Shown one piece after another: positions 11,573 through 20,806 of a DNA stretch of 64,000 nt; position 1 is the stretch's first letter, and each line of letters starts with the position of its first letter. The stretch is from Candidatus Poribacteria bacterium (GTDB lineage Bacteria; Poribacteria; WGA-4E; PCPOR2b). Under the pieces are notes generated by a model. It ran no database searches and was not told the origin of the DNA. It saw only the letters and a list, made by a program, of their open reading frames with translations. The translations under genes and the position numbers were made by a program. The DNA lies in assembly GCA_965208325.1 (NCBI GenBank), contig OZ242326.1, positions 2,944,001-3,008,000 on the forward strand, written 5' to 3'.

Positions 11573-11648
11573 TTGACGTACTTAACGCATTAAAATCACC
11601 GTGCGCCGAAAAAAACTTTGTGCCGTGCCGCTAACGACTGACAACCCC

Positions 11649-14600
11649 ATGGGTGCAGAGCTAGAAACGACCACCGAACTCTCCGAGAATTTCCTCTCAC
11701 TGGACCTTGAAGTCGGTGTCAAAGACCGCCGAATCCACGCCTTCGCAGCAATACGCTCAAATACGGAGCAACCGCTGACGCGCCGTCCGTCGAGCGGCGG
11801 ATTGGACGCCGCATTGGCGGAATTGGACAACTTTGCCGACGGCGTAGACTTTGTACTCGGTCACAATCTTATCCATTTCGATTTGCCCCACCTGCGAGCC
11901 GCAAACCCCAACTTGCGGTTACTGCGCCTGCCCGCTGTAGATACCCTCAGACTCAATCCCCTAGCCTTCCCCCGCAACCCCTATCATCACTTGGTTAAGC
12001 ATTACCAAGATGGACAACTCGTACGCGGACGCATCAACAACCCGGAACTAGACGCCAGACTTGCTATTGGGGTCTTCAGCGACCAGCAGATTGCGTTAAG
12101 TAATACATCGTCCGACCTGTTGACCGCTTGGCACGGGCTGACGACCGCCGTAGGTGGCGAGGGATTCGATCGGTTTTTCGCAACACTGCGGCACTCGCCA
12201 AGACCGACCGCCGCGAAAACCTCTAACGCCATCTACACACTTCTGAATAGCAAAGCGTGCCAAACGCATACCAGCGAGGCGATAGCAAATGCAGATAACC
12301 ACCCCTGGGAGTTGGCTTATGCCTTGGCGTGGATCTCGGTGTGCGGTGGCAATTCGGTCATGCCCCCTTGGGTGCGGCATCAATTTCCCGGGGCCGGACG
12401 TTTGGTGCACCAACTGCGAGACACCCCTTGCGCCGACATCAACTGCAACTGGTGCCGAGAGCGGCACAACGCCCGAAATGAGCTTAACCGATGGTTTCGC
12501 TTTGCCGATTTCCGGGAAAAGCCAGTCGATCATGACGGCAATTCCATTCAGCAGCCCATCGTTGAAGCCGCCATGGCGCACAAACATGTGCTGGGAATCT
12601 TACCGACCGGCTCCGGCAAATCGCTCTGCTACCAACTGCCCGCAATCTCGCGCTACGACAAGACGGGCGCCTTGACGGTGGTAATCTCTCCGCTGGTCGC
12701 ACTTATGGCCGATCAAGTAGCGAGCCTCGAACGTAAAGGAATCGGTTGCTGCCTCACTATCAACGGGCTGTTGTCGATGCCCGAAAGGGCGGATGCCCTG
12801 GATCGGGTGCGCTTGGGAGATGCAGGCATCGTCCTGGTTGCGCCGGAGCAACTTCGCAGCATCCCCTTCCGCCGAGCGTTAAAACAGCGCGAAATTGGCG
12901 CCTGGGTGCTTGACGAAGCCCACTGCCTCTCGAAGTGGGGCCACGACTTTCGGCCCGATTACCGGTACGTGGGTCGGTTCATCCGGGAAACCGCGGGGGA
13001 GCAGCCCGTTCCGCCTGTGTTGTGCCTGACTGCCACCGCCAAGCCCGATGTGAAGGCGGACATCATTGAATATTTTCTTGACAGACTCGACATCGAGCTG
13101 AATGTCTTTGATGGCGGCGCCCAAAGAGACAATCTGGAGTTCTTAGTCGTACGCACGAGCGGCGGTGAGAAGTTCGATCATGTCCATCAGATAATTGCAG
13201 AATATCTGCCGGCGCATGTACCGGGCGGCGCCATCGTGTATTGCGCCACGCGGCGACAGACTGAAGAGATTGCACAATTCCTGCAGGCGAATGAGACGGC
13301 AGCCGAATACTTCCATGCGGGCCTGCCGCCAGAGACCAAGAAAGACGTCCAACAGAATTTCATCAGCGGCGAGTTACGTGTCATCGCAGCTACCAACGCC
13401 TTCGGCATGGGCATTGACAAACCGGACGTGCGGCTGGTAATCCATGCCGACATTCCCGGTTCCCTAGAAAATTTTCTGCAGGAGGCGGGTCGCGCCGGGC
13501 GCGATCAGCAGACTGCACACTGCGTACTGTTATACACGCCGGAAGATGTGGAGCGCCAGTTTGGCATGTCGGCTTACTCTCGGCTCACACGGCGGGAAAT
13601 CCACGGCGTCCTAAGGGCGCTGCGTAATCTCGACCGGAGGAATCGGTTGAACGGCGAGGTGGTAGCCACCGCCGGTGAAATCCTCCTTGAGGACGAAGAC
13701 AAAGTCTTCCAACGGGATTCGGCGACCGACGACACCCGGGTACGCACCGCGGTGGCATGGCTGGAAGAAGCTGACCTGCTGCAGCGGGATGCAAATTACG
13801 TAAGGGTGTTTCCGTCGTCGCTGCGCGTGAATTCAACGAAAGATGCTCGTAACAAGCTGGAAACCGCTCGAATCAGAGATGACTATCGTCGCCAACTGTT
13901 AATCATTGTCGATAGGCTGATTGACGCGGGCCGGGACCAAGGTATCTCCACGGACGAACTGATGGCGGCTTCCGGTCTGACGCCGGAGGGCGTACGAGCC
14001 GCGCTCTACGACTTAGAGCAGTTGGGCATCGCAAACAACGACACGGTTTTGACGGCTTTCGTTCACGCAGGAGTCGAACATTCATCACAAAATCGCTACG
14101 ACAAGGCAGCGGCGCTTGAGTGTGCCCTAATCGATTTTTTGCGTGAGGACGCCCCCGATATGGATAAAGGAGAGAGCGCCATGCTGCATCTACGCGTCGC
14201 CGCCCAACGGCTAAAAGATGCCGGACATACCTATGCCCTGCCGGAACGCCTGTGGCGAAACCTCCGAAGCATCGCCGCTGACGGTCGCGGTGAAGGAAGC
14301 GGCGGCGGAAGTCTCGCCGTTCGAAAGCTTAATCCAGAGATTGTGCGAGTGACCATGCTGCGTGGGTGGAAAGCGTTGACTGAGACCGCTCGGTTGCGCC
14401 GCCAAGCCGCGGTGCGCCTGCTCGAACATCTTCTTTCCAGCCTGCCGTCCGGCAGCCGAGGCACAGACCTGCTCGCCGAGACGACCTTGGGGCAACTGCT
14501 GGGGGCGATTAAGTCAGACCTTATTCTGGCGAACCGCGTGAAGCACCACGGAAAACTCATGGACCGCGCCCTGCTGTGGCTTCACGAGCAGGAGGTAATC

Positions 14601-16763
14601 CAACTAAATAAAGGGCTAGCGGTGCTACGACCGGCGATGACCATCCGCCTTCAGCCGGAACGCCGCGGTTTTGCTCGATCGGATTTTCAACCCCTCAACC
14701 TTCACTACCTTGAAAAAACGCTGCAAATCCACGTAATAGCGGAATTTGCAGAGCGAGGACTTGAGGCAATTGTTGATAGTCTGCGTATGGCGATGGACTA
14801 TTTTGTGCTTACACGAAATGACTTTCTGCGCCGCTGGCTGCCGGACCGAGATATTTCGCGCCAGACTACACCGGAATCTTGGCGAACCATCGTCGAAAGC
14901 CTGAGAAATCCCATTCAACGCCGCATCGTGGCGGACGACCGGGAGCAGACGAACGTCCTGGTGCTCGCCGGTCCCGGCTCCGGCAAGACGCGGGTGCTCG
15001 TGCATCGTATCGCCTATCTGATACGCGTGAGACGCGAGAACCCCCGCGGCATCTTGGCGCTCGCTTACAACCGGCACGCCGCCGTCGAAATCCGTCGGCG
15101 CTTAGCAGAACTCATCGGTGTCGACGCCCGCGGGGTGTTGGTGTTCACCTGCCATGCACTCGCTATGCGGCTGGTCGGCGCCAGTTTCGAGGGACGCGCA
15201 AATCGCATGGATGACGAGGAATTCCGAGAAATACTCCGCGGTGCCGCGGCACTGCTGCACGGCGAAGGGCTGCCGCCGGACGAAGCCGACGAATACCGCG
15301 CGCGCCTGCTGGCAGGGTTCCGCTGGATTTTGGTAGATGAGTACCAGGACATCGGCGAAGATCAGTACGAACTAATTTCCGCACTGGCGGGCAGAACCCT
15401 TTCCGACGAAGATGACAAATTAAGCCTTTTCGCAGTGGGCGATGACGATCAGAACATCTACGCCTTCAACGGCTCCTCAGTCGAGTTTATTCGCCGCTTT
15501 GAGGAGGACTACCGCGCCCAACCCACCTTCCTGACCGGCAACTACCGTTCCACAGCCCGCATTATCGCAGCTTCCAATGCGTTAATCGAGCCGGCGCAGC
15601 AACGCATGAAGACCGAGCACCCAATCAAGGTCAACAGAGCGAGGAGGGATGAACCGCACGGCGGCGCATGGTCTACGCTTGACTCGGTCGCCGGCGGGAA
15701 AGTGCAGATATTGCTTGTGGGCGATAATCCTATCACCCAAGCGCAGGCCGTTGTCGTCGAACTGAAGCGATTGTCCGATTTAGATCCTGACTGGGATTGG
15801 TCGAAATGCGCCGTCATCGCGCGCAAATGGCGTTACCTAGACCCGGTGCGCAGCCTCTGCGAACTCGAGAAGATTCCGGTTCAGATGGCGAACGAAGACA
15901 ACTTGAAAGTTTGGCATCTACGGGAGACCCGCAGGCTAGTGGACTGGCTGCGCTCGCGGAAGTTTCGCTCGGTATCAGGGGAAGACCTGAACAACTGGAT
16001 GGACAACCAGCCCGCAAATCCTTGGTCCGAGCTGCTCCGCGACGGCATAACAGAGTACACGCTGGAAACCAGCGGAGCGGAAACACCGGCAAATCACTTC
16101 GTCGAGTGGCTGGCTGAATGGGCTCGCGAGGTACGCCGCCGCCAGCGGGGGCTGCTGCTGTTGACCGCCCACCGCGCCAAAGGCTTGGAATTCGACCATG
16201 TGGTCGTATTAGACGGAGGCTGGGATCGCGTTGATAGCAGCGAGGATGTGGATGCCCCGCGGCGGCTGTATTACGTCGCAATGACCCGCGCACGCCACAC
16301 CCTTGCGCTGGCGCGCTTTCCGGGTGAACACCGGCTGCAAGACGCCTTGCGGGGTAATCCTTCGGTGCTGCGCCGACGCGGAGACGGCAATCTCCCGCCC
16401 CCGCCGCCGGAACTTGAACGCCGCTACAGCCGGCTCAGCTTGAGCGACATCTTTCTGAGTTTCGCGGGGTATAAGCGCCCCGATGATCCCGTGTATCGGA
16501 ATATCGCCTCGCTCTCTCCCGGCGATCCGTTGCATGTGCGCGTCGGGTCGAAGCGATGGGAACTTCTCGATCGCAACGGGAATGTCGTCGGGCAGCTTGC
16601 CTCCGGATTCAACGGGTCTGGCAACGTGCGCTGCACACGCGCCAAAGTCTGGGCAATCGTCGCCTGGAACCGCGAGTATTCGGAACCCCAGTACCAACGC
16701 GGCATTCAACGCGATAGCTGGGAGGTCGTGGTGCCGGAGTTGATTTTCGAGCCGGATTCATAA
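11649..16763 (+). CDS. Fusion: N-terminal DEDD/DnaQ-like exonuclease fold + RecQ-family SF2 helicase + UvrD-family SF1 helicase
   Basis: SLDLEV/GHNLIHFD/VDTL; PTGSGKSLCYQLP, DEAHCLSKWGHDFRPDY, QEAGRAGRD; AGPGSGKT, LVDEYQD, GDDDQNIY, NYRS, TAHRAKGLEFD, YVAMTRAR. Confidence 0.9.
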   Translation: MGAELETTTELSENFLSLDLEVGVKDRRIHAFAAIRSNTEQPLTRRPSSGGLDAALAELDNFADGVDFVLGHNLIHFDLPHLRAANPNLRLLRLPAVDTLRLNPLAFPRNPYHHLVKHYQDGQLVRGRINNPELDARLAIGVFSDQQIALSNTSSDLLTAWHGLTTAVGGEGFDRFFATLRHSPRPTAAKTSNAIYTLLNSKACQTHTSEAIANADNHPWELAYALAWISVCGGNSVMPPWVRHQFPGAGRLVHQLRDTPCADINCNWCRERHNARNELNRWFRFADFREKPVDHDGNSIQQPIVEAAMAHKHVLGILPTGSGKSLCYQLPAISRYDKTGALTVVISPLVALMADQVASLERKGIGCCLTINGLLSMPERADALDRVRLGDAGIVLVAPEQLRSIPFRRALKQREIGAWVLDEAHCLSKWGHDFRPDYRYVGRFIRETAGEQPVPPVLCLTATAKPDVKADIIEYFLDRLDIELNVFDGGAQRDNLEFLVVRTSGGEKFDHVHQIIAEYLPAHVPGGAIVYCATRRQTEEIAQFLQANETAAEYFHAGLPPETKKDVQQNFISGELRVIAATNAFGMGIDKPDVRLVIHADIPGSLENFLQEAGRAGRDQQTAHCVLLYTPEDVERQFGMSAYSRLTRREIHGVLRALRNLDRRNRLNGEVVATAGEILLEDEDKVFQRDSATDDTRVRTAVAWLEEADLLQRDANYVRVFPSSLRVNSTKDARNKLETARIRDDYRRQLLIIVDRLIDAGRDQGISTDELMAASGLTPEGVRAALYDLEQLGIANNDTVLTAFVHAGVEHSSQNRYDKAAALECALIDFLREDAPDMDKGESAMLHLRVAAQRLKDAGHTYALPERLWRNLRSIAADGRGEGSGGGSLAVRKLNPEIVRVTMLRGWKALTETARLRRQAAVRLLEHLLSSLPSGSRGTDLLAETTLGQLLGAIKSDLILANRVKHHGKLMDRALLWLHEQEVIQLNKGLAVLRPAMTIRLQPERRGFARSDFQPLNLHYLEKTLQIHVIAEFAERGLEAIVDSLRMAMDYFVLTRNDFLRRWLPDRDISRQTTPESWRTIVESLRNPIQRRIVADDREQTNVLVLAGPGSGKTRVLVHRIAYLIRVRRENPRGILALAYNRHAAVEIRRRLAELIGVDARGVLVFTCHALAMRLVGASFEGRANRMDDEEFREILRGAAALLHGEGLPPDEADEYRARLLAGFRWILVDEYQDIGEDQYELISALAGRTLSDEDDKLSLFAVGDDDQNIYAFNGSSVEFIRRFEEDYRAQPTFLTGNYRSTARIIAASNALIEPAQQRMKTEHPIKVNRARRDEPHGGAWSTLDSVAGGKVQILLVGDNPITQAQAVVVELKRLSDLDPDWDWSKCAVIARKWRYLDPVRSLCELEKIPVQMANEDNLKVWHLRETRRLVDWLRSRKFRSVSGEDLNNWMDNQPANPWSELLRDGITEYTLETSGAETPANHFVEWLAEWAREVRRRQRGLLLLTAHRAKGLEFDHVVVLDGGWDRVDSSEDVDAPRRLYYVAMTRARHTLALARFPGEHRLQDALRGNPSVLRRRGDGNLPPPPPELERRYSRLSLSDIFLSFAGYKRPDDPVYRNIASLSPGDPLHVRVGSKRWELLDRNGNVVGQLASGFNGSGNVRCTRAKVWAIVAWNREYSEPQYQRGIQRDSWEVVVPELIFEPDS

Positions 16764-16849: not shown

Positions 16850-17590
16850 ATGAATTCTTACAAATTCACAGATTATACATACTTGGAAATTAAGGGCTTC
16901 ATTGAGGAAGGGTACTTGGCAATCTTACCGACAGGATGCACAGAACAGCAGGGCCCGCACCTGCCGGTGGGTTTCGACACATGGTTCGCTGAGACCGTTG
17001 CTTTAGCGGCTGTGCAGCACAATCGCGGCCGTGCCCTAGTGTTGCCGGCAATGCCATTTGGCCCAACGCCGGAACATCAGGGCTTCGGTTCAGGCTATGT
17101 CAACATCCCGCACCCGGTCCACGAAGAGTTCATCTATTTCGTCCTTGAATCGCTCGCACAACAAGGCTTCAGTACCATCGTTGTCTGGCGAGGCTGCGGA
17201 GAGCATCGGTTACAGAGAACAGTAAACAACTTCAACGCGAAATTTCAGGATCGATGCACCGCATGTGTTCCAGCCCTTCCGTACCGTGACATTTGGCTGC
17301 GTGTAGCTGATCCAACTGTTCCGTGCGGTCACGCCGACAGCTTTGCGACTTCGATCGCTCTATACAAATGCCCGGAGATTGTTCGCGTCGACAAAATCCC
17401 TCCACCCAACGCCGGTCAAGTGGACTGGAACGATCCGCATCTCGATTTTTCGAAATACTCAGAAACCGGTGTCATCGGCGACGCTACCAAAGCGAGCGCC
17501 GAATTAGGCAGTAGGCTTTGGAACGAGGTCGTAACGACATCAGCAACAATAATCAGAAATGCTGCCGTAAATTGTGCACCGAATGGATAA
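16850..17590 (+). CDS. Creatininase/creatinine amidohydrolase family protein
   Basis: LPTGCTEQQGPHLPVGFDT, GHAD, GVIGDATKASAELG. Confidence 0.85.
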   Translation: MNSYKFTDYTYLEIKGFIEEGYLAILPTGCTEQQGPHLPVGFDTWFAETVALAAVQHNRGRALVLPAMPFGPTPEHQGFGSGYVNIPHPVHEEFIYFVLESLAQQGFSTIVVWRGCGEHRLQRTVNNFNAKFQDRCTACVPALPYRDIWLRVADPTVPCGHADSFATSIALYKCPEIVRVDKIPPPNAGQVDWNDPHLDFSKYSETGVIGDATKASAELGSRLWNEVVTTSATIIRNAAVNCAPNG

Positions 17591-17716
17591 CGAGAGGGAT
17601 TGAACCGGCCAATCCAAAATCTTTAATCATCTGGACACTCCACTCACACTTCGGAGCATAACAGGATTGTTGCCGCGGTCGAGGCGGTAGAACCGCAAGG
17701 GGCGTGTAATGAAGTA

Positions 17717-17745
17717 TTGAAAGAAATCGAGAGGATGTATAAGAT
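17717..17745 (+). promoter_or_regulatory. Putative sigma70 promoter
   Basis: TTGAAA-N17-TAAGAT. Confidence 0.4.
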
Positions 17746-17816
17746 GTTTGTGCGTCGGGGAATCCGAACTTTCACTCGAATCCCCCTGAAGCCACCCGAG
17801 ATCGACCCTCGGATTC

Positions 17817-17855
17817 AAAAAGGGGACTGTGTGCTTCACTTGCACAGTCCCTTTT
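17817..17855. terminator. Intrinsic (bidirectional-type) terminator
   Basis: AAAAAGGGGACTGTG-loop-CACAGTCCCTTTT. Confidence 0.75.
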
Positions 17856-17881
17856 CCATTCTAACGACATCGCTCGTTTTT

Positions 17882-17910
17882 TTGCGGCGGCTTGATTCTT
17901 GTGCTATAGT
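17882..17910 (+). promoter_or_regulatory. Putative promoter of toxin-like operon
   Basis: TTGCGG-N17-TATAGT with TG extension, 33 nt before ATG 17944. Confidence 0.45.
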
Positions 17911-17943
17911 TAAACGCCAGTAAGAATATCATCGCCCATTCCC

Positions 17944-18816
17944 ATGCCAAAAATCCCGGTTCTGATTCTCTTTTTGATTTCCGTGTCGTTATGCTCAGCG
18001 GAATTAAGCGAGCCGCTATCGGTTGAAAGGTTGCTTGCCATAACCGAAAAAGAACTGGAAACGGAACTGCCAAAGTTTGATATTGCCTACATCAACATGG
18101 TCTGTGCACAGGGGTTGCCCGGTGCGGAAGCATTTGATGTTCCAAAGGCTTTAGCAAAACTCGATGAATGGGCGAAACATATTCAACATGAAACCCAACG
18201 CCACGAATATCTGTTTCATCGAGATAAGGACTATTACAACGGCTCACTTGCATACTACCAGATTGAGATGATGGTGTCGGTCTTATCACAGGATATGGGG
18301 GTCAGGTATAATCCCGAACTGATTGAGTCCGGCGCATTGTACGACCTTGAATCAACACGGTTCTATGCCGATTCAAGAGATGTGTTCCTTCATGGGTTGC
18401 TATCCCCGCGTCCGTGGGGAACTTGCGCCTCAATGCCTGTCTTGGTCGTTGCTATCGGTAGACGCTTGGGCTATCCGTTAAAACTAGTGCGCGCCAAAGC
18501 CCATCTTTTTGTGCGGTGGGAGTCGGAAACAGAGCGTTTCAACATTGAGGCGACAGGGCGAGGATGGAATCCTTATCCGGATTCGCATTATCGCCGGTGG
18601 CCGCATCCATTCACCAAAGCGGAAGAATACGCCAACCGCTTTTTGAAATCGCTATCGCCGGCAGAAGCACTGGCGGATTTTCTGGGTCAACGCGCCTACT
18701 GTCTCAAGGAACATAAAAGAGATGCCGAAGCCAAAAAAGCGCATGTCAAAACTATCTGGATCTATCAATTGTTCAACGAACGGAGCGGGCGAATAAAACG
18801 CCCGAACATGCTATGA
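17944..18816 (+). CDS. Secreted SirB1/transglutaminase-like protein (Cys-His-acid triad)
   Basis: Signal peptide; GTCASMPVL..AIGRRLGYPL, AHLFVRW, FNIE. Confidence 0.75.
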   Translation: MPKIPVLILFLISVSLCSAELSEPLSVERLLAITEKELETELPKFDIAYINMVCAQGLPGAEAFDVPKALAKLDEWAKHIQHETQRHEYLFHRDKDYYNGSLAYYQIEMMVSVLSQDMGVRYNPELIESGALYDLESTRFYADSRDVFLHGLLSPRPWGTCASMPVLVVAIGRRLGYPLKLVRAKAHLFVRWESETERFNIEATGRGWNPYPDSHYRRWPHPFTKAEEYANRFLKSLSPAEALADFLGQRAYCLKEHKRDAEAKKAHVKTIWIYQLFNERSGRIKRPNML

Positions 18817-19643
18817 CTATGAACACAGTTAAACGATTTACCCTACTGATACTACCGCTGACCTTTATCGCTTCACCCGTTTTAGAAGCCTATTATGACC
18901 CGCACATCGGACGCTTTACACAGCGAGACCCCGCGGGAGAAGGGGTCAACTGGTATGCCTATGGCGCGAACAATCCGATGAAGTTTGTTGACCCAACGGG
19001 GATGTATATCGTCCTGCCGGGCGGCACCGAAATAAGAAGCGTCCCTGACATAGTTGGTGGTAACTATGTAAGGCCGGAGGGTCTGTCAGACGAAGCCAGT
19101 ATACTTTGGGATTCAATATTCACAGGCGGAAACAACGGAACCGGAATCGCTGGAAGTAACAGCGCGGGCGGTATTGTGACCGATATTATCGAAAGCCCCA
19201 CGCCAGTGACAATAAATTTTTCAGAAAAAGTACAAGGAAATGCGGAAGCCGTTGCCATATTGAATCCTAATAACGGTTCTATTACAGTAAACATCAATAA
19301 GGAAAGGGTCAAACCGCCGAACCCAGAAATTTTGGGACAGATGGCTAGGCTGACAATGGCTCTGGTTCATGAATTTTCTCATGTCCATGACTATATGAAC
19401 ATACCACTAGACTTCATATATGGCCAGCCATACCATTTTAGTTATGTTACGGAAATGAAGGCTTTTGGTCTTGAAGCCCGGTACGCAATAGAAACGGATA
19501 GAAAAGACGGAAATTATAAGTTCGGCTGGCATAGCATGTATTCTGGCTTTAGTGCACATGAACTCACGCACTATGGTTCCACGGACTATTACGGGAAACT
19601 TAATAGACTGGCACTTAAGGCAATGGGGTTGAATTATCGATAA
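18813..19643 (+). CDS. Mini-RHS protein: signal peptide + RHS-associated core + HExxH (zincin-like) putative toxin domain
   Basis: VLEA|YYDPHIGRFTQRDP...NWYAYGANNPMKFVDPTG; LVHEFSHVHD and downstream E; ATGA overlap with upstream gene. Confidence 0.8.
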   Translation: MTMNTVKRFTLLILPLTFIASPVLEAYYDPHIGRFTQRDPAGEGVNWYAYGANNPMKFVDPTGMYIVLPGGTEIRSVPDIVGGNYVRPEGLSDEASILWDSIFTGGNNGTGIAGSNSAGGIVTDIIESPTPVTINFSEKVQGNAEAVAILNPNNGSITVNINKERVKPPNPEILGQMARLTMALVHEFSHVHDYMNIPLDFIYGQPYHFSYVTEMKAFGLEARYAIETDRKDGNYKFGWHSMYSGFSAHELTHYGSTDYYGKLNRLALKAMGLNYR

Positions 19644-19660
19644 TCGGCAGGAGAAAAACA

Positions 19661-20782
19661 ATGCGGCTTGTCCTTATCTGTCTATATTTGGTTAGCATGG
19701 CAAATATTGTATCTTACGCTCATGATCAGAACATCGCGTCGTTAATTCAGCAACTTGAACATACAGATGCGGATGTCCGAGACAGCGCGGGTAAATCCCT
19801 CATCGAAATTGGCGAAACAGCAGTGCCGGCATTGATTGTGGGATTAAACCACGAAAAAGTCATTGTGCGCCGGGCGGTTGTGGATATACTGTACAATATT
19901 AGAGCGAGTGTCCCTCACAATAAAGACATAGACCGTGCTTTGGCTAAAGCCCTACAAGATATAGAGGTGCGTTATCAAATAATACAATGCTTCACTCCGA
20001 CCGATTCGGAATTACCGCCGGAGTTTATTTCAGGCTTAGTGCAGTTACTCTATTATGGATCGCCCTACTTTGGACACGCCGATCCCTGCATGGTTTTGCT
20101 CAAGTGGACGGGCAATCAAGGACGAGTTGCTTTAATCGAGGCGTTGCACAGTAGCGAATGGCCGCTTCGTTTTGGTGCTGCCATCACCTATGGGCATCTG
20201 TTTGGCTTCTTCACTGGCTTTAATAACCCTGATGCTGCGCCTCTTCCTAATGAAGCAATCTCTCCTAAAGAGGTAATCTCTATAATAGCTGGAGGATTAA
20301 CCCATCCGGATTGGAAGACACGAGATGAAGCGATGAGGGTCTTGAGTATCATTAGCAAGTCCGACCCTGCTCGCTTTGGCGAAACGGCAAAAGCGTTTGA
20401 TGAAGCCAGACAGGCACTTAAAGCATTGCCGGCCTTCGCTATCATATCCCAAACTATCACAGATGGGTGTTACCTTGATGACACAAATTTCGATGCTTTC
20501 GATTCATTGAATACCGAGGGCATTACGTTCAAATTCAACCGCTCAATTCACGGGAGCGGGACGCTTACAATCAAAACCGTTGATGGTGAACCGCTAGGTT
20601 GGAACGTCGAAAAGGGCAGCCATTCAGTGACCATAACCCCGCCAGAAGGGAAAGAACTGGTAAAAGGTCAACGCTATACGATTCAACTCAGGGATGTTAA
20701 GGACATTCTGGGTAATCAAGTCGATGCCGAAATCGAGTTCTCAACTGAAGTGCTGATTCGTAGTTCCAGGCACGCCCATTAA
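19661..20782 (+). CDS. Secreted HEAT-repeat + Ig-like (Big_5-like) protein, putative immunity, copy 1
   Basis: Signal peptide; DVRDSAGKSLIEIGETAVPALI; C-terminal ITFKFNRSI..VTITPP..RYTIQL..KDILGN. Confidence 0.75.
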   Translation: MRLVLICLYLVSMANIVSYAHDQNIASLIQQLEHTDADVRDSAGKSLIEIGETAVPALIVGLNHEKVIVRRAVVDILYNIRASVPHNKDIDRALAKALQDIEVRYQIIQCFTPTDSELPPEFISGLVQLLYYGSPYFGHADPCMVLLKWTGNQGRVALIEALHSSEWPLRFGAAITYGHLFGFFTGFNNPDAAPLPNEAISPKEVISIIAGGLTHPDWKTRDEAMRVLSIISKSDPARFGETAKAFDEARQALKALPAFAIISQTITDGCYLDDTNFDAFDSLNTEGITFKFNRSIHGSGTLTIKTVDGEPLGWNVEKGSHSVTITPPEGKELVKGQRYTIQLRDVKDILGNQVDAEIEFSTEVLIRSSRHAH

Positions 20783-20806
20783 AGCCCCTAACTCGAAGGA
20801 AAAGCA

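Follow-up and report, generated by a model that had tools for sequence, protein, structure and literature searches.

The window analyzed here, a stretch of 64,000 nucleotides from a Candidatus Poribacteria bacterium (GenBank contig OZ242326.1, positions 2,944,001 to 3,008,000), encodes at 18813-19643 on the plus strand a short protein in which a signal-peptide-like leader is joined directly to the end of an RHS-associated core, and this in turn to a predicted toxin domain. The open reading frame (ORF) starts with ATG and spans 276 aa, and an identical 276-aa protein is on record for the source contig. Its leader (residues 1-26, 18813-18890, sequence MTMNTVKRFTLLILPLTFIASPVLEA) has Sec-type signal-peptide features with predicted cleavage after Ala26; the RHS-associated core tip (residues 27-64, 18891-19004, sequence YYDPHIGRFTQRDPAGEGVNWYAYGANNPMKFVDPTGM) runs from YYDP to DPTGM; and the C-terminal domain (residues 65-276, 19005-19643, stop codon included) is zincin-like, with the HExxH motif HEFSH at 19368-19382 and a conserved E214. 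A sequence-only reading of the window had placed VLEA in this copy, and AIEA in a second one, immediately before YYDP, which both ORFs confirm. We call this gene and its relatives leader-tip genes; coordinates are on the plus strand unless stated otherwise.

RHS toxins are understood to be cages around a toxin, which is released by an aspartyl protease built into the plug of the cage. Here the YD-repeat beta-cocoon of about 1,000+ residues is absent, the ORF beginning 26 residues before the tip with an upstream frame of 58 codons, and so is the complete RHS-associated core, itself part of a plug of ~95 residues. Just positions 37-76 of the 76-position TIGR03696 model (Rhs_assc_core) are kept, matched by residues 27-64 at 47.2 bits (E 2.4e-12; curated cut-off 32.5 bits), well beyond chance, and the tip can be aligned to the C-termini of Rhs and TcC cages of known structure, including the RhsA chain 7q97_A. 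A Pfam search of the 276-aa ORF gave nothing at E <= 0.01.

A conserved signal-peptide-like leader

We followed the leader through the source genome G000 (a single contig, 95.6% complete by markers), its sister species G035, and a phylum survey of 176 species genomes that includes G044 and G054; P-numbers denote homologous proteins, L-numbers extracted loci, and X5 and X7 sequencing runs, X5 being from an independent study. DNA of the locus was recovered in sponge metagenomes. The leader has a basic n-region (K7, R8), an uncharged hydrophobic run of 15-17 residues, Ala at -1, the less usual Leu at -3, and Tyr at +1 with no Pro in that position; it has no lipobox Cys and is predicted as a helix in the AlphaFold2 model. 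These properties recur in 30 distinct Poribacteria leaders of 21-26 aa, with an n-region net charge of +2 in 27, uncharged runs of 15-17 residues, Ala at -1 in all 30, and A, V or S at -3 in 22 (L or I in 8). Two subtypes, MTMNTVKRF... and MPMLKRLSI..., lie far apart in sequence, and the signal-peptide properties are common to both. By its features the leader is a predicted Sec/signal peptidase I signal peptide, from which we infer export; a Tat signal was ruled out by eye, there being no twin arginine and the leaders being short and strongly hydrophobic.

The expectation that the leader would be conserved in homologues was borne out, since 26 of 33 near-length homologues begin with it, fused at the same residue with an exact junction to YYDP. 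When a leader-plus-tip profile was compared with 1.84 billion representatives, 14 of the best 150 clusters matched from residue 1-3. Three Ig-like repeat proteins that scored high against this profile, P0034 (3,837 aa), P0049 (3,740 aa) and P0103 (584 aa), were taken as spurious repeat matches (...ATYDPITGTLTPTDPL...) and not RHS cores, P0103 being the one inspected. Across the phylum survey the leader stands on seven of 51 core matches (three in G000, three in G035, one in G044), and the remaining short frames are classical orphans that start inside the core (...NALGSNIV...) or at another junction. One such leaderless junction, ...TNDFHVLRYQQLQAS[AT]IGYYYAIR directly before YYDP, recurs three times in G044 and once in G054 (L041, that is G044:C1:4863800-4874200, L045 and L033), and the phylum therefore has at least three distinct 5' boundary types of orphan cassettes.

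Nei-Gojobori counts gave a ratio of nonsynonymous to synonymous differences (pN/pS) of 0.36-0.81 for the leader in most pairs and 1.58 in two, with leader pS of 0-0.25, and a pN/pS of 0.11-0.56 for the tip, with pS of 0.18-0.58. The low pS of the leader relative to that of the tip suggests that leader DNA has been partly homogenized, and the pN/pS of the tip indicates protein-level constraint on it.

Conservation of leader and tip, variation behind them

Besides the gene at 18813, G000 holds two further leader-tip genes, one in the window (copy 2, 24363-25219) and one at G000:C1:2353607-2353984 on the minus strand (copy 3). Copy 2 has its ATG at 24363 and reads AIEA then YYDP, its tip scoring 47.7 bits against TIGR03696; a one-base frameshift soon after HExxH places the remainder in the frame of ORF 24971-25219. 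It is 88% identical to copy 1 over leader and tip and 61% overall. The sequence-only reading was right that the leader is kept in both window copies; its claim that they diverge past the core holds only in part, for 61% identity across 214 aligned positions marks their C-terminal domains as homologues. Plainly different C-terminal domains stand behind this leader and tip in copy 3 and in other genomes only, and the 34 leader-type proteins fall into five C-terminal groups (BLASTP single linkage) unrelated to one another by BLASTP.

The sister species shows where this variation begins. Its locus carries, in order, a creatininase gene, a transglutaminase-like gene, a leader-tip toxin, a 483-aa HEAT gene, a HEAT/Big_5 gene, a second leader-tip toxin and a second HEAT/Big_5 gene. 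G000 and G035 are 92.7% identical from 16800 to ~19000, the tip ending at 19004, and the similarity is then lost; the window toxin domain and immunity gene instead match the second G035 cassette (79%). The G035 homologue of the 483-aa HEAT gene (75.8% DNA identity) lies directly 3' of a leader-tip toxin with another C-terminal domain, and in the window the 483-aa HEAT gene (22768-24219) survives without its toxin. Since homology with G035 stops at the end of the tip, leader and tip form the constant module of a short, cage-less polymorphic toxin, and the pattern is as would be expected if a toxin/immunity cassette had displaced its predecessor by recombination at the core, with the short gene as acceptor. 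Between copy 3 and its G035 counterpart the leader DNA does not differ at all, but the tip has diverged (pS 0.25), which reads as a second sign of mosaicism.

The three copies also have a 5' flank in common (18768-18812 by DNA alignment), in which the transglutaminase-like gene ends. The match begins at ~18776 in copy 2 (37 nt by blastn; the alignment extends to ~75 nt) and at ~18790 in copy 3 (23 nt), and because the 3' end of this gene stands before copies 2 and 3 they were copied from a locus like the first. A blastn search with flank and leader returned copy 2 at 89.6%, copy 3 at 85.1% and no further match in G000, so that the leader element has three occurrences there, every one on a tip, and a donor gene elsewhere in G000 was not found.

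Four full-length RHS genes (1644-1717 aa) are also present in G000; each encodes a distinct signal peptide of its own and matches TIGR03696 positions 1-76 or 1-75. An origin of the leader from these signal peptides was ruled out, as there is no resemblance. The full-length gene at G000:C1:3675878-3680908 ends in the toxin domain of the window copies and is followed by the same kind of secreted HEAT/Big_5-like gene, and the toxin type of copy 3, with its HEAT lipoprotein neighbor, matches another full-length RHS locus. Because toxin and immunity genes are shared in this way, the short genes draw on the toxin/immunity pool of the cages. The distance from copies 1 and 2 to any full-length RHS gene is ~0.6-0.7 Mb, and copy 3 lies ~8 kb downstream of one.

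Delivery by a type VI secretion system (T6SS) was ruled out, no TssC or PAAR having been found in G000; Omp85 proteins are present. At G000:C1:3654686-3660605 (L121:10686-13133, L119) an 815-aa secretin (STN, Secretin_N, Secretin) lies directly upstream of a full-length Sec-type RHS gene and is followed by genes for a PilN-like protein, a weakly T2SS-C-like protein and a 400-aa protein of no family, a homologue of which also precedes the RHS gene at 2.36 Mb. In a genome where no T6SS markers were found, this arrangement suggests that a secretin may serve as the exit for RHS toxins. A 166-aa ORF (G000:C1:3683849-3684349), which lies beyond the immunity genes of the RHS gene at 3.68 Mb, reproduces the signal peptide and first residues of a full-length RHS protein and has the look of a 5' RHS remnant from a rearrangement.

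The predicted zincin-like toxin domain

Within the C-terminal domain, HEFSH occupies residues 186-190, and across 15 sequences H186, E187 and H190 are invariant and E214 is conserved in at least 90%. The AlphaFold2 model of the ORF has a mean predicted local distance difference test score (pLDDT) of 75.6, with residues 90-272 at 80-95. The structure search of this domain that had been proposed from the sequence was run: Foldseek against PDB returned nothing at E <= 0.001, and VIA-align returned solely zincin peptidases with Z up to 7.6, among them M27 light chains, M1 catalytic domains, SPRTN/Wss1, M34 lethal factor and NleC/GtgA-type effectors, a pattern that points to the general zincin fold in the model and to no particular family. 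A PDB profile search gave matches on the tip alone and none on the toxin domain. No Pfam toxin-peptidase family reached threshold, the nearest being Peptidase_M91 at 16.8-19 bits in relatives only (cut-off 25), and for copy 2 and P0004 there were just sub-threshold SprT-like and Peptidase_M91 matches. A protein atlas placed the ORF in unnamed clusters, one of which (M91 in 34% of members) scored 0.88 and serves as a lead only. Small Wss1-like zincin toxin domains do occur on RHS proteins (PMC3482391).

A second, larger family of leader-tip proteins

A low-ranking match from a metagenome, P0143, has a different leader and a divergent tip and, used as a query, retrieved 281 short proteins, of which the 120 listed matches underlie the following figures. 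Seventy-four begin with Met and a hydrophobic leader, the last residue of which is small and abuts [FY]YDPGLQRWINRDP; the others have the same junction with shorter called starts (10), longer N-termini (27) or no such motif (9). Several unrelated-looking leader types share the junction, and two of the 120 are named Verrucomicrobiota by NCBI. Among 45 aligned members neither the two aspartates nor the Gly of DxxG varies (D40, D63, G66), and A-x-A precedes the junction in at least 90%; their C-termini have nothing in common. P0143 itself (227 aa; locus L125) carries a signal peptide, two tandem divergent tips (FYDPGLQRWINRDP...GL) and then a C-terminal part. Short leader-tip proteins are thus common, and this in no fewer than two bacterial lineages.

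Across 76 metagenome loci, tips of this one type terminate long RHS bodies (30 motifs, preceded by 150 codons or more) and also follow leaders (32-33 motifs). Gly at +5 is found in 98 of 103 leader-type tips vs 8 of 50 tips on RHS bodies, a contrast which indicates that leader-type tips evolve as a lineage of their own. By approximate, regex-based counts, the second aspartate is kept in 89 of 95 leader-type and 44 of 46 RHS-body tips, whereas the residue after DxxG is L, F or W in 72 of 95 leader-type tips vs 45 of 46 on RHS bodies (non-canonical in 23/95 vs 1/46); the lower proportion of L, F or W counts against universal self-cleavage.

The core tip and self-cleavage

The sequence-only reading had recognized in the core the aspartyl protease with its two DP motifs, and both the TIGR03696 match and the alignment to the catalytic aspartates of RhsA agree with it. 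RhsA is cut after W1350 and its catalytic aspartates are D1324 and D1346 (PMC8765631); by alignment and the numbering of that paper, D39 corresponds to D1324, D60 to D1346 and M64 to W1350. The two DPxG motifs of the tip are accordingly D39-P-A-G and D60-P-T-G-M, with M64 as a hydrophobic putative P1, and 16 leader-tip sequences from Poribacteria show no change at D39, D60 or G63. The exported 38-residue tip might therefore be a minimal aspartyl autoprotease that frees the toxin between DPTGM and Tyr outside any cage. Such activity is compatible with the tip being a recombination joint, the role we favor below, and could hold in addition to it. Retention of both catalytic aspartate equivalents and of the hydrophobic P1 (PMC8765631) speaks for self-cleavage, as do the low pN/pS of the tip (0.11-0.56) at pS of up to 0.58 and the invariance of D40, D63 and G66 in 45 second-family sequences despite C-termini without anything in common, all the more because the second-family tips, with Gly at +5 in 98 of 103, form their own lineage and their conservation is not simply re-imported from full-length genes. 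Yet of the plug/protease domain, which in solved structures has ~95 residues and is embedded in the cage (PMC8636562, PMC8765631), just 38 residues remain; the tip is modeled at a pLDDT of 35-55; and in the second family P1 departs from L, F or W far more often than in RHS-body cores, with the Pro of the second DP kept in just 39 of 95 leader-type proteins. On balance we regard self-cleavage outside a cage as rather unlikely, and the evidence fits a recombination joint better than a self-cleaving or secretion tag.

A transglutaminase-like gene next to leader-tip genes

Directly upstream, at 17944-18816, lies a gene for a secreted transglutaminase-like protein of 290 aa (Pfam Transglut_core2, 29.1 bits; cut-off 23.5), whose stop codon overlaps the ATG of the toxin gene (ATGA). 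Cys161, His187 and Glu202 are invariant in five sequences; the AlphaFold2 model (mean pLDDT 56.9) was too poor for a fold search. In the phylum survey this query found the protein in two of the 176 genomes, G000 and G035. Homologues with 38-56% identity are encoded in five of the 76 metagenome loci, on the same strand and inside leader-tip toxin arrays, and these five include all three loci longer than 5 kb with leader-type arrays; in L193, L195 and L155 the transglutaminase-like genes end 277-347 nt 5' of the [FYH]YDP junction of the next toxin. The gene accordingly accompanies both leader-tip families, and we consider it a candidate accessory gene. A 281-aa paralogue in G035 (77% identity; L201, G035:C1:2463391-2467251) stops 18 nt short of a full-length RHS gene, the two lying in one frame with a single stop codon between them. 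Inactive transglutaminase domains occur between signal peptide and RHS repeats (PMC3482391); here, the transglutaminase fold is on a separate protein, which may be active.

This association raises the alternative that the tip is a docking or sorting tag, through which a partner in the periplasm (the transglutaminase-like protein, the secretin system beside the RHS cluster or an RHS cage) would process, anchor or export the toxin. The linkage of the transglutaminase-like gene to leader-tip genes in Poribacteria and in the five second-family loci, including all three of the longer arrays, would fit a partner of this kind, as would the invariant Cys, His and Glu, the position of secretin, PilN-like and T2SS-C-like genes just before a full-length RHS gene, and the strong conservation of FYDPGLQRWINRDP beside the predicted signal-peptidase site. 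Most leader-tip genes, however, have no transglutaminase-like neighbor in the sequence at hand, the G044 genome has none by this query, and all four full-length RHS proteins of G000 have complete cores, so that no cage is waiting for a tip; we judge a docking tag to be improbable.

Candidate immunity genes and other neighbors

Downstream of the toxin gene lies a succession of putative immunity genes. The first (19661-20782) encodes a secreted HEAT-repeat protein of 373 aa (Pfam HEAT_2, 48.3 bits), a candidate immunity protein. Next comes a second HEAT/Big_5-like paralogue (20807-21916), which is split by an in-frame TAG at 21032-21034 into ORFs 20807-21034 and 21038-21916 of one frame, the latter with a weak, sub-threshold Big_5 match; at 21033 the contigs of X5 and X7 have G, so that the codon would be Trp, and the gene is therefore intact in other strains. 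A SUKH-1 (SMI1/KNR4) protein follows at 21837-22745 (Pfam SMI1_KNR4, 41.9 bits), and then, at 22768-24219, the 483-aa HEAT-repeat protein with a leader (Pfam HEAT_2, 198 bits), which is probably an immunity gene stripped of its toxin. Behind copy 2, a third HEAT/Big_5-like paralogue (25221-26402, from ORF call and Pfam) is truncated at its C-terminus, and its N-terminus resembles the protein 3' of the full-length RHS gene with the same toxin domain.

Imm-HEAT and SUKH are known immunity families of polymorphic toxins (PMC3482391). The HEAT/Big_5-like family lies 3' of this toxin type at four places in two genomes (the full-length RHS gene, copies 1 and 2, and G035) and on the same contigs as P0002, P0003 and P0004. 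Its member beside the toxin has its own leader, and from this recurrent position we consider the secreted HEAT/Big_5-like neighbor probably to be the immunity protein of the zincin-like toxin.

A scan for promoters and terminators from 17500 to 27000 gave 17 and 10 sites vs 14.8 and 9.4 expected, which is chance level, and a small hairpin (GGGCG...CGCCC) 5' of the ATG was dropped, as it is not kept in copy 3. Just past the truncated HEAT/Big_5-like gene, a 172-aa ORF at 27167-27685 on the minus strand resembles, by eye, the C-terminal part of a tyrosine recombinase/integrase. On the other side of the locus, a 1720-aa helicase-like ORF (11601-16763) lies in a stretch of 57-59% G+C, compared with 44-51% for the toxin locus, and may belong to a separate island.

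A proposed cage-less toxin with the tip as recombination joint

A constant N-terminal part, a variable toxin, adjacent HEAT and SUKH genes and spare cassettes together constitute a polymorphic toxin system as defined in PMC3482391. From the features of the leader and the distribution of homology, we propose, as the likelier though by no means certain account, that the gene at 18813-19643 encodes a Sec-exported, cage-less polymorphic toxin of the RHS system of a Candidatus Poribacteria sponge symbiont, in which signal peptide and tip are both the constant module and the recombination joint. The protein would be exported by Sec and trimmed after Ala26, so that the mature form starts at YYDP; the tip would be mainly a conserved joint at which toxin/immunity cassettes from the RHS pool recombine in; the toxin would act in the cell envelope; and the secreted HEAT/Big_5-like protein encoded next to it would neutralize it.

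Several observations weigh against this proposal. By eye there is no Shine-Dalgarno sequence near the ATG, and no RNA run was found among the runs containing locus DNA. Two of the three leader-tip copies in G000 are broken: in copy 3 a premature stop interrupts the frame right behind the tip, whose second aspartate is replaced by Asn, and the frameshift of copy 2 is also present in the independent X5 contig, which has no indel there, with P0005 ending at the same place. The X5 contig covering 19064-20743 runs upstream into sequence like that of the window at ~17.7 kb; in the X5 strain the stretch at ~17750-19064, with the transglutaminase-like gene, leader, tip and first part of the toxin, is apparently deleted or replaced, and the 195-aa protein P0001 fits such an arrangement. 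Gene conversion might account for part of the conservation of the leader. The tip is predicted to be disordered, as its low pLDDT indicates, and although its DNA is 68-84% identical to the four full-length cores of G000, the exact runs, at 11-38 nt, are short for homologous recombination. Finally, the proposal would require a route by which a periplasmic protein of ~24 kDa crosses the outer membrane and enters a target.

The remaining alternative, a silent, unexpressed rhs-CT orphan kept for recombination with the leader as a fortuitous upstream extension of the frame, would accommodate the two broken copies, the 5' part absent in another strain, the many leaderless classical orphans of the phylum, and the occurrence, behind full-length RHS genes, of orphan arrays that include copy 3 and the G044 gene, but is made very doubtful by the conservation of the leader, with ATG, basic n-region, hydrophobic run and Ala at -1 in 30 of 30 leaders despite very different subtypes, by a residue-exact junction in two phylum-level lineages, by the distance of copies 1 and 2 from any full-length RHS gene, and by the place of the gene in G000 and G035, 3' of a transglutaminase-like gene, a slot held elsewhere in G035 by full-length RHS.

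Comparison with known toxin systems

The enterobacterial orphan rhs-CT/rhsI modules described in PMC4436062 are alike in having a core fragment, a variable toxin and an immunity gene, in forming some arrays downstream of full-length rhs genes, in sharing their toxin domain with a full-length gene, and in having core recombination as the likely route of exchange. That orphan cassettes generally have no leader, as the sequence-only reading had stated, accords with PMC4436062, in which they are described without N-terminal trafficking modules; here, by contrast, an ATG and a leader are fused exactly at YYDP, the leader-tip arrangement is conserved across genera and in a second lineage, and two copies lie far from any rhs gene.

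MafB of Neisseria and other Sec-dependent toxins (PMC3482391, PMC4436062) likewise combine a signal peptide, a short lineage-specific module and a polymorphic toxin, and the MafB system shares with the present one downstream immunity, orphan cassettes and a conserved upstream accessory gene (mafA there, the transglutaminase-like gene here). Unlike in MafB, the module here is a 38-residue remnant of the RHS core and not a globular domain of its own, and the family can therefore, by our reading, draw on the RHS toxin pool. Sec-dependent full-length RHS proteins (PMC3482391) have in common with the leader-tip proteins the signal peptide, the tip with two DPxG motifs, the variable toxin, HEAT-type immunity and an association with the transglutaminase fold, whereas here there is no YD-repeat cage and the transglutaminase-like part is separate and secreted and keeps its Cys, His and Glu.

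As for the toxin, Tox-MPTase1-5 (PMC3482391) and the M91-domain Rhs of Salmonella Dublin (PMC13556075) are alike in being small HExxH, zincin-like C-terminal toxins, but the domain here falls below threshold for every Pfam toxin-peptidase family. The SitA lipoprotein toxins of myxobacteria (PMC5562445) are also short, Sec-dependent polymorphic toxins without a large delivery scaffold; SitA, however, is delivered by outer-membrane exchange, whereas the leader here has no lipobox Cys. We found no description of a signal peptide fused to an RHS core tip in the literature searched; the supplements of PMC3482391, which lay outside the search, may list such architectures.

Conclusions

Here, we describe short proteins that keep the protease tip of RHS toxins alone and in which an export signal replaces the entire cage. 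It is conceivable, though we would not expect it, that the final 38 residues of the RHS core constitute a portable module working without a cage, either as a minimal two-aspartate self-cleaving pro-piece or as a tag for a secreted transglutaminase-fold enzyme, and that this module defines a widespread and so far undescribed class of small Sec-dependent polymorphic toxins in Poribacteria, Verrucomicrobiota-like and probably other bacteria. If the leader-tip proteins are functional, the RHS toxin pool would be usable without a cage and without a T6SS, and the proteins would offer a natural minimal construct for testing whether the two-aspartate tip cuts alone, as well as a pointer to a transglutaminase-fold partner that recurs with Sec-type RHS systems. 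For annotation, among the short proteins now named "RHS repeat-associated core domain-containing" or "hypothetical", hundreds may prove to be secreted toxins in their own right and not gene fragments.

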